Assembly: GCA_965197585.1 (NCBI GenBank)
Contig: OZ240215.1
Location: forward strand, 2,176,001 to 2,240,000
Reading direction: 5' to 3'
Source: Dehalococcoidia bacterium
GTDB lineage: Bacteria; Chloroflexota; Dehalococcoidia; Plut-88900
Length of the DNA stretch: 64,000 nucleotides
In this document: positions 15,594-32,929 of the stretch, piece by piece
Numbering within the stretch: the first letter of the stretch is position 1
Layout: each line of letters begins with the position of its first letter
Program-made: the position numbers and the translations under genes
The notes under the pieces: model-generated
Told to the model about the DNA's origin: nothing
The model's input: the letters and a program-made list of their open reading frames with translations, nothing else
Database searches by the model: none

Positions 15594-16523
15594 ATGAAGG
15601 CCTACATCCTTCGCAGGATGCTCTGGGTCCCAGTAGTCCTTCTCGTCGTGTCCTTCGTCACCTTTGCCCTCGGCAACTATGGCCCGGGCGACCCCGTTTC
15701 CGTTCTCGCCGGGCAGCACCGAGACCCCGATGTCATCGCCCGCATCAAGGAACAGCGCGGTCTGGATGACCCATTCTTCGTACAGTATGGCCGTTACGTA
15801 TGGAACGCCGTGCAGGGAGACCTCGGAGAGAGCTTCACATTCCGCGGCGAACCCGTCTCCAGTCTTATCACCGGCAAGATATGGGTGTCAGCCCAGCTGG
15901 GCATCGCAGCGACGATAATTTCTGTGTTTGGAGGTGTGCCCCTGGGCTTGACCGCCGCCCTGAACCAGGGCCGCTGGACGGACCCGGTCATCGTCGCCAC
16001 CACACTCCTCTTTATCTCGGTCCCCGTCCTGGTAACCGCGCCCCTGCTCGCCCTCATATTTGTCGTATGGCTGGACATATTGCCCAGCGGCGGATGGGGC
16101 GGCTTCTTCGACATACGCATACTCATGCCCGCCTTCGTCATGGGAGTACCGGGCATCGCCATAATGACCCGGCTGATGAGGGCCAGCACCCTGGATGTCC
16201 TGGGCCAGGACTACATACGCACCGCCCGAGCCAAGGGCCTGCGCGAATGGACCGTCCGCCGCCGACACATCGCCCGAAACTCCATCATCCCCATCGTCAC
16301 CGTCATTGGCCTCTCTCTGGGCGACCTTGTGACCGGCGCATTCATTACCGAGCAACTGTACGGCATCCCGGGTATCGGCAAGCTGGCCATCGACTCCATA
16401 TTCAACCGGGACTTTCCGGTCATCATGGCCCTCGTGCTGATCATTGCCGTGTCCTTTGTCCTTGCCAACCTGCTGGTCGACGTTCTCTATGCCTTCCTCG
16501 ACCCCCGGATCAAGTATGACTAA
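15594..16523 (+). CDS. oppB: Oligopeptide ABC permease
   Basis: PGDP, GLDDP..VQY, GDLGES, EAA-like DYIRTARAKGL, LDPRI. Confidence 0.93.
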   Translation: MKAYILRRMLWVPVVLLVVSFVTFALGNYGPGDPVSVLAGQHRDPDVIARIKEQRGLDDPFFVQYGRYVWNAVQGDLGESFTFRGEPVSSLITGKIWVSAQLGIAATIISVFGGVPLGLTAALNQGRWTDPVIVATTLLFISVPVLVTAPLLALIFVVWLDILPSGGWGGFFDIRILMPAFVMGVPGIAIMTRLMRASTLDVLGQDYIRTARAKGLREWTVRRRHIARNSIIPIVTVIGLSLGDLVTGAFITEQLYGIPGIGKLAIDSIFNRDFPVIMALVLIIAVSFVLANLLVDVLYAFLDPRIKYD

Positions 16524-18567
16524 CCCGCTGCAGCTCCTGAGCGGACTGGGTCGCCGACTCCTCAAAAGGGACTCCATCAACGCAAGGCCGGAAGCCCCTG
16601 CCTCCACCACCGAGGGGCGCGGCGGTCCCTGGGCACAGGCATGGACCCGGCTGCGCCACAAGAAGGTCGCACTGGGGGCGCTCATCATTGTCGTCATTCT
16701 CTATGGGGTGGGCGCCTTAGCCCCTCTAACCGCCCCCCGAGACTACCGGGAGACTCCGTCAACTAACCTGGAAGAACTGCCTGGCTTCCAGGGCCTCGTC
16801 ATGTCTCCTAACTGGTCAGATGACTCGACTTTGTACAACTACACCCCCGTGGGCGTTTTTCGCTCCGAAAACGCAGGAGGCAGCTGGACTCAGGTAGTTT
16901 CAGGACTGGGCGCCGTCAACGTGGACGTGCTGGTGCCGGTCCCGTCCGAAGGGCCTGAAGAGGTGGTCTACGCCGGTACGCCTCAGGGAGTTTTTGTCTC
17001 CCGGGACGGCGCCTCTTCCTGGGCCCCTGCGAACGTCGGCCTCCCGGACAATCTCGGCATCAATCACATCGCCGTCTCACCCGTCTTCCACGCGGACGGG
17101 ACCCTGATTGCCGCCTTGTCCGGCGGCCTGTTCAGGAGCGCAGACCGGGGCACGACCTGGACAAACGTCAGCAATGGCTTCCAAGGCGACTCCCCTGCCG
17201 CATCCCACGTCGTCTTCTCCCCCGCCTTCGCCATTGACGCCACGGTCTTCGCCACCGTTACCGAGCGCAAGACAGGCTCCTTCCGCTCCGTCGAGGAGAT
17301 CTACCGCTCGACAGACGGCGGGGTGACCTGGACCCAGGCCTACGAGGGCAGAGCGGGCACGTCCCGGGAAACCAGGATGGCCATATCGCCGGCCTTCGCC
17401 CGAGACGGCACCCTGTACGTGTCCACCTCCCAGGGTTTGCTCCGCTCTCGGGACAGGGGGCAAACATGGGATGTGATTGACGAAAGTTTGGGCAGCCACC
17501 AGGTAATCTCCCTCCTTATCTCCCCCGATTTCGGGTCCGACAACACCATATTTGCCAACACCAGCAGCCTCGGTATCTATCGCTCCGTCGATGGAGGTGA
17601 GTCCTGGGACATAGTAACCACAGGCCTGAGCATCACCAAGGCCGAAGGCCTCGCCGTCTCACCCGACTTCGGAAACGACGCCACACTCTTTGCCGGCACC
17701 GTGGACGGCGGCCTATTCATCTCCACAAACGGAGGCGACCTCTGGACCGAGCTCGCCTCCACGGACCTTATCGAGGGGCCGTCCATTTTTAATTGGCCCC
17801 CGAGCTTCGAGCATCCCCTTGGCACCGACAGGATTGGCCGCGACATGCTGAGCCGGGTAATCTACGGCATCCGCACCACGGTGATCATCACCTTGGCCTC
17901 GGTGCTTACGGGATCGCTGCTAATTGGTGTGTTCATGGGCGCCGCCGCGGGTTATTTCGGCCGCCGCGTCGATACCATAATCATGCGCACCGGCGATATA
18001 TTTCTCGCATTCCCCGGCATCCTGCTGATCATACTTATTGCGGCCACGGTCAAGCCGAGGGTCGTGGAATGGACGAGGGGATTTGAAGACTGGTCCGGCA
18101 TCGACGGGATAGTAAGGTCGGGGGCCGTGGACTACTTTGTAGTGTTCGCGTCGCTGACCCTGTTCAGCTGGGTCGGCATGGCCCGGCTGGTCAGAGGCCA
18201 GGTGCTGTCGCTGAAGGAGAGCCAGTACGTGGAGGCGGCTAGGGCCATGGGCGCCTCGAACCTGCGCATCGTCTTCCGGCACCTGCTCCCGAACGCTATC
18301 AGCCCGGTAATCGTATCGGTTTCGATGGGCATGGGCGCCGTGGCGGGATCGGAAGTGGTACTGAGTTGGCTCGGGATCGGTATCCAGCCCCCGAACCCTA
18401 GCCTCGGGCGCATGATCCTCGAAAACTTCGGAATATCCAACCTCTCCATCCTCCGCGACGACCCCCACCTCCTCCTCGTCCCTGCCGTCACCATCGCCAT
18501 CCTCATCTACGCCTGGAACCTCCTCGGAGATGGCCTCAACGACGTTCTGAACCCGAGGACACGGTAG
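16516..18567 (+). CDS. oppC: Oligopeptide ABC permease OppC with inserted BNR/Asp-box beta-propeller
   Basis: ATG overlaps the oppB end. TM1, then 7 Asp-box repeats, then HPLGTDRIGRD, YVEAARAMGA, NLLGDGL. Confidence 0.85.
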   Translation: MTNPLQLLSGLGRRLLKRDSINARPEAPASTTEGRGGPWAQAWTRLRHKKVALGALIIVVILYGVGALAPLTAPRDYRETPSTNLEELPGFQGLVMSPNWSDDSTLYNYTPVGVFRSENAGGSWTQVVSGLGAVNVDVLVPVPSEGPEEVVYAGTPQGVFVSRDGASSWAPANVGLPDNLGINHIAVSPVFHADGTLIAALSGGLFRSADRGTTWTNVSNGFQGDSPAASHVVFSPAFAIDATVFATVTERKTGSFRSVEEIYRSTDGGVTWTQAYEGRAGTSRETRMAISPAFARDGTLYVSTSQGLLRSRDRGQTWDVIDESLGSHQVISLLISPDFGSDNTIFANTSSLGIYRSVDGGESWDIVTTGLSITKAEGLAVSPDFGNDATLFAGTVDGGLFISTNGGDLWTELASTDLIEGPSIFNWPPSFEHPLGTDRIGRDMLSRVIYGIRTTVIITLASVLTGSLLIGVFMGAAAGYFGRRVDTIIMRTGDIFLAFPGILLIILIAATVKPRVVEWTRGFEDWSGIDGIVRSGAVDYFVVFASLTLFSWVGMARLVRGQVLSLKESQYVEAARAMGASNLRIVFRHLLPNAISPVIVSVSMGMGAVAGSEVVLSWLGIGIQPPNPSLGRMILENFGISNLSILRDDPHLLLVPAVTIAILIYAWNLLGDGLNDVLNPRTR

Positions 18568-21301: not shown

Positions 21302-22666
21302 TTAGGGGCTTGCCATGCTTCGTATCAGGGCTATGGCAAGGTTTACGACATCACCCAACAGGCCCGAGTCAACGAATTCCAGGGTGTCCTCGGCGGTGTT
21401 GACCCGGGAAAGGTCGTCTGCGAAGAATAACACCACGGGTATCTCCACCGACTGGAAGACAACGTGGTCACTGATCAGTCCCTCGGGCTCTCGGCCCGGG
21501 GTGATCGTGACTCCAAGATCCGTACCCAGCCGCAAGGCCTCCAGCTGAAGCGCCGGCTCTCCGGCGATGATGGCCCTTTCACCGCTCCCCACATCATCCA
21601 GGTTGATCATCGCAAGCACGCTGCCCGTGTTATCACCTATGACGTTCGAAACGTATCGCTGGCTGCCTATAAGGCCGACCTCCTCCCCGCCGAAGGCCAC
21701 GAATGTCACGTCCACGGCAAGGTCGTCGTCCTTTAGGGCTCGGGCGATGGTGAGCAAGGCTGCCGTCCCCGACGCATTGTCGTTCGCCCCGACCGACTCA
21801 GTGTCAGTATCGTAGTGGGCCCCGATAATGATGGTCGGCGCCCCGGTTATGGAGCCCTTCTTGGTCGCCACTACGTTGCGGCTCTCCCTGTCGTCCGTCT
21901 CCACTTTCACCCGCACCGTCACCTCACCCGACTCCATCATAGCCAAAAGGGCTTGACCGTCTTCCTGGCTTATTGAAAGCGCCGGTATCTGGCCGGCAGT
22001 TTGAAGGGTGCCTGCGAAGTTCTCCGGCTCGCTGTTGTAGATTATGACCGCCGAAGCGCCTGCTTCCCGAGCGTTACTGGCTTTGATTTCAAAGTCGATC
22101 TCTCCCCGCCCGATCAACGCCACGGCCCCGTCCAACCCATCCTCGGGGAAATCTACCGCCCTGCCTAGACCTGCGTGTACCAGTCTCCCTTCCACGTCCC
22201 CGAAACCCGTCCGGTACATAAACAGCGATTCAATAACTTGCTCTTCCTCGCCCGTGACCCTCAGCCAGGGTTCATCATCGCTTATTAGTCTCAGGTCGAA
22301 GCCATTAACTTCTGCCTCGTATCCAAAACTGCTAAGCTCGGCGGCAATGAATTCCGCGGCCGCAAGCTCTCCGTCCGTCGTAGCATTTCGTTCCGGGTAA
22401 TCAGAGACGATGGTTTCCACGTATCCATAGGCGATATCAGCCAACTCAGGCGCGAAGGAAACGGCAGTGGGCACGTTAACGCCCGGGGCGGAGATGGGGG
22501 TGGAGGTAGGAATCGCGATGGTGGGGGTCGGCGTGCCTGTTGTATCAATTGCCTGGGGGGTGAGTGCCTGCGCCTCAGTAGTTGCAGTGGCATCCCCGCC
22601 GCCACCACATGCGGCCGCAACCAGTACTGCCAGGATTGTAGCGGCCAAGAGTTTCAATTTGATCAT
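21302..22666 (-). CDS. M28 aminopeptidase with PA domain, lipoprotein
   Basis: Lipobox AAAC, GAHYD, GANDNASG, GEE.GL.GS, INLD, SDH. PA insert. Confidence 0.9.
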   Translation of the reverse strand: MIKLKLLAATILAVLVAAACGGGGDATATTEAQALTPQAIDTTGTPTPTIAIPTSTPISAPGVNVPTAVSFAPELADIAYGYVETIVSDYPERNATTDGELAAAEFIAAELSSFGYEAEVNGFDLRLISDDEPWLRVTGEEEQVIESLFMYRTGFGDVEGRLVHAGLGRAVDFPEDGLDGAVALIGRGEIDFEIKASNAREAGASAVIIYNSEPENFAGTLQTAGQIPALSISQEDGQALLAMMESGEVTVRVKVETDDRESRNVVATKKGSITGAPTIIIGAHYDTDTESVGANDNASGTAALLTIARALKDDDLAVDVTFVAFGGEEVGLIGSQRYVSNVIGDNTGSVLAMINLDDVGSGERAIIAGEPALQLEALRLGTDLGVTITPGREPEGLISDHVVFQSVEIPVVLFFADDLSRVNTAEDTLEFVDSGLLGDVVNLAIALIRSMASP

Positions 22667-22830
22667 CTAAACCTACGTCCTGTGTTCTCGGTAGACACAG
22701 TGGAGTTTGGGACTAGAGGGGCTCATCAAACAATAACGCACGTAGAGTCATTTAGTTGCGCCCCCTCAGCGTACAACAATGGGAAACTGCGCTGCAGTTT
22801 CCCATTATTTACCTTGCATAAGTTAGGGAA

Positions 22831-23262
22831 CTATTCCCTCCGAGTTGCCGGCCCCCGAGCCGACTTCTTAGGCGCTCCGGTGTATTTTTCATCCGGGAAC
22901 AGATCCTCACCGGGAGCCCCGCCCTCGCCGGCCACCGTGCTCATCGGCTCCTCGCCCGCTTCCATCTTGCGAAGAAACTCTTCGCTCACGAAGAACATTC
23001 ATATACAGAACCCGTCTCGGGCTATGTCTTCGTGGTGCCTCTCGCAGGGGCAGATCTTCATGCGATCCAGATCCGGATCGCCATCTACGATCATTCAGGG
23101 ACAGTAGCGGTAGCCGAATTTCACCTCGTTCTTGGCCAGCCCCTTCTGCACTTCGTCGACGATCTCCGGGTCGGAGTAGAACTCGTAGGGTCCCTTCTCC
23201 ACGTACTTCTCGGACATCTTCACTGCGCCCTTCAGGGCCTGCTCGAAGGTCTTCTTCTTCAA
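22831..23262 (-). CDS. ftrC: Ferredoxin:thioredoxin reductase catalytic subunit, predicted double selenoprotein (143 aa; U56, U88)
   Basis: RBS AAAGGAGG plus TTG. GLAKN...GYRYC-P-TGA (23095-23097)...ICPCERH...DGFC-I-TGA (22999-23001)-MFFV, all in one frame to TAG 22831. Matches the FTR CPC/CPC/CxC pattern. Confidence 0.85.
22969..22985 (-). promoter_or_regulatory. Putative bacterial SECIS for U88
   Basis: GCGAAGA-GTT-TCTTCGC starts 13 nt after the TGA. The loop begins with G. Confidence 0.7.
23062..23081 (-). promoter_or_regulatory. Putative bacterial SECIS for U56
   Basis: GCGATCC-GGATCT-GGATCGC starts 13 nt after the TGA. The loop begins with G. Confidence 0.7.
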
Positions 23263-23353
23263 CCTCGTTCCTCCTTTGCGCTGGGGCCTATGGTTCAATT
23301 ATACCCCACCGCCCGGCCCATTCCTTCGCATTGTCTGTTAACGCTCATCCTAA

Positions 23354-25540
23354 TCAGGGTTCGCAGATAGACACTTCACTTCCGTCCCGACGCGTTATTT
23401 CATCCAAGGACTCGGGAATGCAGCCGTGTAGATTCGTGTAGCTAATGTCAAGCCTGGATAGCTGCTGCAGATTGCCTATTTGCGGCAAGATTGCCCCCTT
23501 AATACGAGTGTAGGCCAGATCTAGTTCGCGCAATTCCGTAAGGTCGTACAGCTCCGCAGGCAAGGAACCGCTGATACCGGTCCCCCTGAGATCTAGGATT
23601 CTCAACTGTTGTAGTGATCCCAATTCTGGAGGCAATGTTCCTGAGATAGTCGGAGACGACAGATCGAGTGTCTCTAACTGCTTCAGGTTGCCAAGCCCCG
23701 AAGGAATCGATCCACTAATTCGATTGCCGCCCAAACGTAATACTTTAAGGTTGGATAGCATGCCAAGTTCCTTTGGTATCGCCCCTAAAAGGCCATTCCT
23801 GTTTACGTTCAGCTCGACCAGCTCAGACAATTCACTAAGCTCTGTCGGAATATGTCCGTCAAGCTTGTTCGATGACAAGTCCAGATATTCCAGCGCGCTC
23901 AATTCCCCAATCTCCGCAGGGATTGTCCCGCTAAGATCGTGCTCAGGAAGGGACAGCCTGCGAACCCGGAGCGGTAACTTATCGTCTGGGGATTCAGCAT
24001 CCGATGTTTCTGCTGACAGAGGGTCAAGATGGACTCCCTCCCAATCAGATAGTGCCGTTTGCGCATCCCAATTCAACTCGCCGGCACCCGTCAGCTGGTC
24101 TCTGATCCGCAACAGCACCTCGCAATCCCGTACCAGACCAAAGTTGTTTTGTGGATCCTCCACTAGGCTTCCCAGCGAGCAGGAAACCGGACCGGATACA
24201 CCCTCTGCGATTGCGGCCTCTGCAGACAGCAATACCCCATTACGAGAAAGCGCGGTCAACGCACGCTTCCCGCCAGTCTCTATCGTTACCACGTGCAAGC
24301 CGCCCTCCATGCTGGCAAACATTGTCCCGTCAGGTGACCAAGCCCCACAGGAGCTTCCTTCAAATGAGCGCAAGTTAGACCCGTCCGCATTTACTATGAA
24401 TGTTGATCCCGGCAAACCATGTACGGAGAACATTATTTGAGATCCATCCGGTGACCAGCTTGGCCAGCAGAAAGTGTCATATTGCGGCACGTAGTCGAGT
24501 CGGACATTTACAATCTCACTAAATTGCCTCCCGTCCCTATCTACAGTGAACAGCTTAGTCCACCCTTTTTCATAGCTTAGAAAGGCTATGCTTTGTCCAT
24601 CTGGTGTCCATGCTGGTGGGCCTAGGATAGAACCGTAGGTGACTCCATCTGTTCTAGCTTCGAAACCTAATACTCTCTTAGAGGGGGCCCCGTCGGTATT
24701 CGATATGTAGATACCTGGTCGCAGTCTTCGCGTCTGGCTGTAGGTTGAGTCAAATTCTTCTTTGTAGTAATACACTGTTGCCAAATAAGCGATTTCACGA
24801 CTGTCGGGAGACCATGTGAAACCGCCGAAAGCGTATACATCCTCTTTTATGGAGTAGTTTGCTGGTACACCGGGAGCTCTTGTTTCTTCCAGGTCTTCAG
24901 GTGAAGGCGGTACTGCCAGCATCTGGATATCCTTGCCATCTGTACCCATTACGAATAGTCCTGAATCCGCCCCGCCATGTCCTTTGCAAAAGTCGGCGTC
25001 ACGCTTGAAGGCAATCAGTGAACCGTCAGGTGACCATGACGGAGAGGAATCCAAGGCCGTAGAGGGAGTGAGCCTTTTTCTGTCCGCACCATCAAGAGCG
25101 ACTGTTTCGATCTCGTGAAAGTACTTTCCTTCGCCTGCATCTCTGTATGCTACGTAGACGATACGATCTTGCTCCGGAGAGAAATCGAGGGAGCGGACAA
25201 CTAGCGATTTATCATCTAGCATTCGCCTTAGGGTAGTGCCGTCAGGCGAAATTGTGTAAATCTGCGAAACATAAGAATGTCCAGGCAAACGAGCGTTAAA
25301 CACTATCGAACTACCATCAGGTGTCCATTGTGGTGTTGTTTTTGGCCAGGAATAGTCTTTGTCCGTGGGTATCGGTATAGGTGTTGGAGTGGCAAACGCA
25401 CCAGAGGCAAAGGGCCTAAAGGAGCCACAACGGATGCTATTGTTGATGCTGTTTACGCAAAATCCTACTCCAGTGAGCAGGAGTCCCACCGTAGCAAACA
25501 GTACGACCCATTTCTTGTGCTTCAGAATGTATCCACCCAT
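23354..25540 (-). CDS. TolB-like (PD40) beta-propeller fused to plant-type leucine-rich repeats
   Basis: N-terminal TM, repeated WSPDG, then L.GxIPxELGxLxxLxxLxLxxN repeats. Confidence 0.85.
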   Translation of the reverse strand: MGGYILKHKKWVVLFATVGLLLTGVGFCVNSINNSIRCGSFRPFASGAFATPTPIPIPTDKDYSWPKTTPQWTPDGSSIVFNARLPGHSYVSQIYTISPDGTTLRRMLDDKSLVVRSLDFSPEQDRIVYVAYRDAGEGKYFHEIETVALDGADRKRLTPSTALDSSPSWSPDGSLIAFKRDADFCKGHGGADSGLFVMGTDGKDIQMLAVPPSPEDLEETRAPGVPANYSIKEDVYAFGGFTWSPDSREIAYLATVYYYKEEFDSTYSQTRRLRPGIYISNTDGAPSKRVLGFEARTDGVTYGSILGPPAWTPDGQSIAFLSYEKGWTKLFTVDRDGRQFSEIVNVRLDYVPQYDTFCWPSWSPDGSQIMFSVHGLPGSTFIVNADGSNLRSFEGSSCGAWSPDGTMFASMEGGLHVVTIETGGKRALTALSRNGVLLSAEAAIAEGVSGPVSCSLGSLVEDPQNNFGLVRDCEVLLRIRDQLTGAGELNWDAQTALSDWEGVHLDPLSAETSDAESPDDKLPLRVRRLSLPEHDLSGTIPAEIGELSALEYLDLSSNKLDGHIPTELSELSELVELNVNRNGLLGAIPKELGMLSNLKVLRLGGNRISGSIPSGLGNLKQLETLDLSSPTISGTLPPELGSLQQLRILDLRGTGISGSLPAELYDLTELRELDLAYTRIKGAILPQIGNLQQLSRLDISYTNLHGCIPESLDEITRRDGSEVSICEP

Positions 25541-32837: not shown

Positions 32838-32929
32838 GGAGGGATCGCATAGTGGTCTAGTGCGGGCGCCTGCTAAGCGCTTATCTGGGGAAACCTGGAT
32901 CGTGGGTTCGAATCCCACTCCCTCCGCCA
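32838..32929 (+). tRNA. tRNA-Ser (GCT)
   Basis: Acceptor GGAGGGA/TCCCTCC-G-CCA, anticodon loop CTGCTAA, long variable arm, GGTTCGAATCC T-arm. Confidence 0.97.

Follow-up and report, generated by a model that had tools for sequence, protein, structure and literature searches.

Does a reductase gene that carries two in-frame TGA codons, each at the place of a redox-active cysteine, encode a protein with two selenocysteines (Sec), and what kind of enzyme would this protein be? The question is raised by a locus in the 64,000-nucleotide stretch of Dehalococcoidia DNA analysed here (the window), for which a model working from the letters alone (the sequence-only reading) had proposed a ferredoxin:thioredoxin reductase (FTR) with a 143-residue read-through product carrying the motifs C54-P-U56, C71-P-C73 and C86-I-U88. 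Translation with TGA read as U reproduced this product and assigned it to the minus strand, the strand having been left unstated in the sequence-only reading (Table 1). The TTG start is used by close relatives of the gene as well. No second FeThRed_B match exists in the whole genome, and the gene, termed ftrB in the following, is thus present as a single copy.

When the profile of the family is aligned to the catalytic FTR chain of Synechocystis, 1dj7_A (residue numbers counted from the printed alignment), C54/U56 fall on the C-P-C motif (chain residues 55/57), C71/C73 on residues 74/76 and C86/U88 on the C-H-C motif (85/87). Four of these FTR cysteines (55, 74, 76 and 85) ligate the cluster. 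It follows from the alignment that the cluster-ligand positions are Cys and that exactly both disulfide positions are TGA, which bears out the assignment made by the sequence-only reading. Furthermore, Ile87 of the C-I-U motif is nearly invariant across the double-Sec family (alignment A3). Just past the stop codon a terminator-like palindrome is found; the corresponding search returned 1 site against 0.9 in shuffled sequences, which alone is weak evidence.

Table 1. Positions of the ftrB gene, its predicted functional codons and the adjacent signals, in window coordinates.
Feature	Position	Strand	Remarks
ftrB-family double-selenoprotein gene	22831..23262	minus	143 codons plus TAG stop (22831-22833), TTG start (23260-23262), both read from the sequence; translation with TGA=U
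GGAGG, Shine-Dalgarno-like	23270..23274	minus	7 nt upstream of the TTG start; read from the sequence
Cys54 codon, predicted [4Fe-4S] ligand (FTR Cys55)	23101..23103	minus	invariant in alignment A3 (34/34 aligned sequences)
TGA1, codon 56 (predicted Sec), aligned to FTR Cys57	23095..23097	minus	TGA in 80/80 relatives
SECIS-like hairpin 1	23062..23081	minus	fold: 7-bp stem from 13 nt after TGA1, G-first apical loop
C71-P-C73, predicted [4Fe-4S] ligands (FTR Cys74/Cys76)	23044..23052	minus	both Cys invariant in A3 (34/34)
Cys86 codon, predicted [4Fe-4S] ligand (FTR Cys85)	23005..23007	minus	invariant in A3 (34/34)
TGA2, codon 88 (predicted Sec), aligned to FTR Cys87	22999..23001	minus	TGA in 80/80 relatives
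SECIS-like hairpin 2	22969..22985	minus	fold: 7-bp stem from 13 nt after TGA2, loop GUU
Terminator-like palindromic hairpin	22778..22806		just past the ftrB stop codon

The protein matches the NCBIfam equivalog model NF041072 (FtrB_double_U, 'FtrB family double-selenoprotein') with 212.3 bits (cut-off 160) across all 121 profile positions, and with 202 bits in a six-frame search of the genome, as well as Pfam PF02943 (FeThRed_B) with 74.4 bits (cut-off 22). Whether double-Sec FTRs had been described before was a question which the sequence-only reading had to leave to others, and the answer is yes. In their passages on FTR, Zhang and Gladyshev (2008, PLoS Genet, PMC2398784) state that two Cys of the enzyme form a redox-active disulfide bridge and report, from a marine metagenome read, a homologue of FTR in which Sec stands in for both redox-active Cys. 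A table row of a 2026 AEM review (PMC13188914) reads 'Ferredoxin-thioredoxin reductase, CxU, 2 Sec', and a table of a 2022 review (PMC9312934) places the family under COG4802 (FtrB). Our literature searches, with supplements and figures outside their scope, returned no biochemical study of a double-Sec FTR or FtrB. The window gene is therefore an ordinary member of a family whose prediction dates from 2008 and for which a curated model exists, and no new kind of system: it shares with NF041072 the full-length match, the two predicted Sec at the redox-active Cys, a CxU motif at each site and SECIS-like hairpins of the bacterial type, and differs from it in nothing of substance. With the FTR selenoprotein of 2008, to which NF041072 corresponds, it shares the double-Sec reading; to judge from the passage describing that read, its belonging to the same Dehalococcoidia subfamily is not assured.

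The conservation of the two TGA codons was analysed in three sets of genomes. Scanning species-representative genomes yielded 111 relatives, 80 of which were kept, nearly all of them labelled as Dehalococcoidia or Chloroflexota MAGs. Both sites are TGA in 80/80 of these fetched relatives, and the spacing between the two codons is always 32 codons (81/81 including the window). Among the 401 genomes of the class sample, a denominator that includes one genome flagged as unpublished (G601, outside the matches), 34 exceeded the NF041072 cut-off and all 34 matches hold two TGA; apart from the window's own genome, its family is represented in this sample by 11 genomes, and these carry the two-TGA gene without exception. 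In the phylum sample, likewise of 401 genomes, the window's own genome alone exceeded the cut-off, a scarcity which is a sampling effect and is corrected by the class sample. The double-Sec family thus occurs commonly in uncultured Dehalococcoidia, where its conservation is strict, and the view of the sequence-only reading that random decay would not produce such a TGA pattern agrees with these counts.

The selection on the gene and the letters at both sites, which had been proposed as checks together with the homologues, point in the same direction. Pooled pN/pS was 0.284 for the 40 codons leading up to U1, 0.125 for the interval from U1 to U2 and 0.183 for the 13 codons that follow U2, and the two latter values indicate that coding constraint continues beyond both TGAs in the form of purifying selection. 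In the contigs of four public runs, which stem from three studies, no letter departs from TGA at either site where it is covered, so that neither TGC nor TGT occurs; a variant at 23005 in these contigs is a synonymous TGT/TGC change in the Cys86 codon. One contig of 232 nt from a library recorded as RNA (X15 record 15, 22984-23215) spans both TGAs unchanged. The cover in the RNA-library runs is confined to 22964-23275 of the window, and because such libraries can contain DNA, these contigs are no proof of transcription. The view that decay has turned the locus into a pseudogene, or that the assembly is wrong and TGC/TGT were miscalled as TGA, has nothing in its favour beyond the two in-frame stops themselves and is refuted, with practically no probability left to it, by the presence of both TGAs in 80/80 independent assemblies, the pN/pS values past the TGAs and the absence of an alternative letter in the public runs.

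In two of the metagenome runs the summed contig depth rises about 20- to 50-fold over 22964-23011 of the window, where many diverged contigs end. This segment encodes C-I-U-MFFVSEEFLRK together with hairpin 2, and the rise suggests a nearly invariant segment common to many related organisms in the samples.

The genome of the window consists of one contig of 3.43 Mb with 59% G+C and is 92% complete by marker genes. The Sec machinery, which the sequence-only reading had proposed to look for, is present: selA (543 bits), selB (370 bits), selD (385 bits) and a tRNA-Sec with the anticodon TCA were found, all four over their cut-offs. A reading of the TGAs as Trp, Gly or Cys by means of a variant code or a suppressor tRNA, instead of Sec, is exceedingly improbable in view of this complete pathway. 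What could be quoted for such a reading is the W printed at both sites in some database gene calls (P0003-P0011), which shows only that the caller applied a TGA=W code; other database relatives are cut at 'CP' (P0015, P0016, P0019), so that the mis-handling by gene callers, anticipated as a truncation at the first TGA, occurs in both forms, and gene callers still truncate or mistranslate double-Sec ftrB. Against a variant code, TGA ends 615 of the 2096 stop-to-stop frames of at least 300 codons and is consequently an ordinary stop in this genome, selA, selB and a TrxB-like gene are free of internal stops, and in 9 of the 81 family genes TGA is the first stop codon after U2. Furthermore, the TGAs occur only on the redox-active Cys positions, and a conserved hairpin follows each of them. 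As far as sequence can show, both UGAs are decoded as Sec.

Three observations on the Sec genes and their models are added here. The selD gene (contig C1 of the window genome G000, C1:3357253-3358176, locus L014) itself holds one in-frame TGA, and its product is probably a Sec-containing selenophosphate synthetase. The tRNA-Sec model gave a second match in the genome at G000 C1:263532-263619 (L003), with 49.3 bits against a gathering score of 47; this match may represent a tRNA with a long arm (Ser or Leu) and not a second tRNA-Sec. In the window, the tRNA-Ser(GCT) at 32838-32929 reached 44.6 bits with the tRNA-Sec model.

The hairpins after the two TGA codons are conserved beyond what the protein sequence demands. 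The stem of hairpin 1 keeps 6.48 of its 7 pairs in 62 distinct relatives, compared to 4.67 after synonymous recoding, and that of hairpin 2 keeps 6.43 of 7 in 65 distinct relatives, compared to 4.59; the loop of the latter is GTT in 56/65 and GTA in 9/65. The mean MFE z-score of the hairpins against recoded sequences is modest (-1.18). Two-sided compensatory changes were found in neither stem among the relatives, so that the support for the hairpins consists in pairing conserved at wobble positions and not in covariation. An Rfam scan of 22500-23600 returned no match to a SECIS family and two matches at chance level only. A different hairpin after TGA2, proposed by RNAalifold (UUCUUC/GAAGAG), was rejected in favour of the stem at 13 nt: with 5.91 of its 6 pairs kept in the relatives and 5.90 in the recoded sequences, it is fully explained by the protein sequence.

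With respect to the type of enzyme, the best matches among solved structures were the ferredoxin:disulfide reductase (FDR) of Methanosarcina acetivorans (4tpu) and the glutaredoxin-FDR fusion of Desulfotalea psychrophila (7pwe), with phmmer E-values of 2e-12 and 3e-12, profile E-values of 9e-15 and 4e-13 and Foldseek ranks 1-3. Among the Foldseek matches listed, ranks 1-11 and 13 are all FDR or FTR chains. The underlying structure model was used for the fold search only, as its mean pLDDT is 60, with about 50-57 in the cluster-binding region (blocks from residue 61) and less than 50 for residues 70-74 and 107-143. The window protein and the two FDRs have the CPC...CPC...CxC spacing and the absence of a variable subunit in common, whereas the FDRs possess Cys at both active sites and Tyr in C-x-C, where the window protein has predicted Sec and Ile. 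Instead of the fused rubredoxin or glutaredoxin of the FDRs, the window protein ends in a tail of about 40 residues modelled with low confidence that contains an invariant G...LF. This tail (residues 105-143, 22834-22950 of the window) is variable, yet G118, L121 and F122 are invariant in it and may constitute a short docking motif.

For comparison, FtrC, the catalytic subunit of classical FTR (Synechocystis 1dj7, plant 7bzk), shares with the window protein PF02943 and, column for column, the six-Cys pattern, but its similarity is much weaker (E 3e-4 with the single sequence, 2e-8 with the profile), its C-H-C His is replaced by Ile in the window protein, and in the latter four residues (H76-D79) are inserted after the second CPC, ahead of the last motif. 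His86 of C-H-C is catalytic in classical FTR. A search of the window genome for the variable subunit of FTR (PF02941, FeThRed_A) gave nothing at E<=0.01, whereas a control genome of Synechococcus was matched. We thus assign the window protein to the double-Sec FtrB family and regard it as FDR-like in architecture and closer to FDR than to the plant and cyanobacterial FTR, because 4tpu and 7pwe match best, a variable subunit is absent and Ile stands for His. Of the name ferredoxin:thioredoxin reductase, as given by the sequence-only reading, the affiliation to the FTR catalytic-subunit family (PF02943) was retained; the specific type was not, since the protein is nearer to the FDR type. A pair of redox Cys replaced by two Sec, which form a diselenide, is also reported for the eukaryotic selenoprotein SelL. 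SelL differs from the window protein in its thioredoxin fold, its UxxU motif, the lack of an Fe-S cluster and its eukaryotic SECIS, and is unrelated in sequence.

Homologues with Cys at one or both sites exist besides the double-TGA genes, and their relation was analysed with a quick tree with SH-aLRT supports, on which all statements about branches are based. Therein, 72 distinct double-Sec rows form one branch (support 98) together with two metagenomic proteins whose site 1 is Cys and whose sequence is truncated at site 2. A separate FDR-like Cys/Cys branch (support 99) and a separate C-H-C FTR-like branch (support 96) each contain one C/U member. Among the 29 phylum loci examined, 24 are C/C, 2 are C/U, 1 is U/C (L016) and 2 are without the motif, and the class sample holds many further one-TGA matches. 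The C/U and U/C forms thus indicate that several branches of the superfamily have acquired Sec at one site or the other, and that this happened separately in the neighbouring FDR-like and FTR-like branches. The single-Sec relatives in Chloroflexota (L016, L039, L042 and others) carry the TGA either at site 1 only, as CPU...CRC, or at site 2 only, the latter as C-Y-U in the FDR-like form and as C-H-U in the FTR-like form.

It is very probable that the product of ftrB is a cytoplasmic [4Fe-4S] protein from the FTR catalytic-subunit/FDR superfamily in which both UGAs are translated as Sec and which performs an FTR/FDR-like reduction via Sec56-Sec88. SelB and tRNA-Sec would recode both in-frame UGAs, each with its own hairpin 13 nt after the codon, C54, C71, C73 and C86 would hold the [4Fe-4S] cluster, and Sec56 and Sec88 would replace the residues which form the cluster-adjacent redox disulfide in FTR. 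A low-potential donor, probably ferredoxin, would deliver two single electrons through the cluster, and these would open the selenenyl-selenide bond between Sec56 and Sec88. The exposed Sec56 could then attack the disulfide of a thioredoxin-like or another thiol protein, with Sec88 interacting with the cluster. By analogy with FTR, the most likely course is that a Sec56-Sec88 bond is reduced in two steps through the cluster. The potential of a diselenide is much lower than that of a disulfide, so that its reduction by ferredoxin is plausible but not assured. If this mechanism is true, the [4Fe-4S]-coupled Sec-Sec centre would be chemically unusual, and one would expect it to reduce more strongly and faster than the Cys-Cys pair of FTR and FDR.

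An alternative concerns the partner and the substrate. FtrB could be a genuine double-Sec protein and still not a thioredoxin reductase, acting instead with a dedicated partner or on a dedicated substrate, e.g. a co-occurring small protein, or on some other non-thioredoxin target, and possibly drawing on a donor other than ferredoxin. We take this alternative seriously without favouring it. The nearest solved relatives, 7pwe and 4tpu, are FDRs, whose substrates are, by the titles of the entries, not thioredoxin-specific, and the genome contains a TrxB-like reductase (288 bits, below the cut-off of 343), so that the reduction of thioredoxin need not depend on the double-Sec FtrB. Furthermore, a small ORF lies directly upstream of ftrB on the same strand in 45/81 loci. 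It encodes a protein of about 100-135 residues with an invariant CxC...CxxH pattern (for example L073:3518-3901; it is found upstream in L057-L123), and this small protein had no match in Pfam and none above noise in NCBIfam. A profile of this protein matches 18 of the 401 class-sample genomes, and all of these are among the double-Sec carriers (18/34, compared to 0/367 of the other genomes).

This co-occurrence is weakened as an argument by the fact that the 18 genomes fall in only five families and are related rather than independent, and by the 16 of the 34 double-Sec genomes in which the small-protein profile has no match. In the window's family, moreover, the small protein is not linked to ftrB: the copy of the window genome (G000 C1:1747795-1748088, L129:3795-4088, plus strand) is situated elsewhere on the contig, 25 nt upstream of a gene for a DAO-type FAD oxidoreductase, and such a gene follows it in all 10 of the related loci fetched. 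The small CxC...CxxH family is newly noticed here, and its distribution suggests a lead toward a partner of FtrB. That the small protein is a metal-binding or redox protein which serves FtrB as electron donor, as substrate or as an analogue of the FTR variable subunit, forming with it a Se-dependent reductase module of very low potential peculiar to certain Dehalococcoidia, with a possible link to the DAO flavoenzyme in the window lineage, is a tentative proposal that we hold to be rather unlikely as it stands. The co-occurrence nevertheless offers a concrete start for the biochemistry of double-Sec FtrB.

Concerning the neighbourhood in the window itself, ftrB lies between a gene for an LRR/PD40 protein upstream and genes for M28 and MA peptidases downstream. 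No functional link to ftrB and no hint at its substrate emerged from these neighbours or from a cohesin-domain protein and cyclases nearby. A cluster of ORFs spanning 51 loci was discarded, as it consists mostly of antisense shadow ORFs over ftrB and the small gene upstream of it. Elsewhere in the window, at 16444-18567 on the plus strand, a 707-aa ORF fuses a membrane domain of the oligopeptide-permease type (BPD_transp_1, OppC_N) to BNR/Sortilin-type repeats, which is an unusual architecture.
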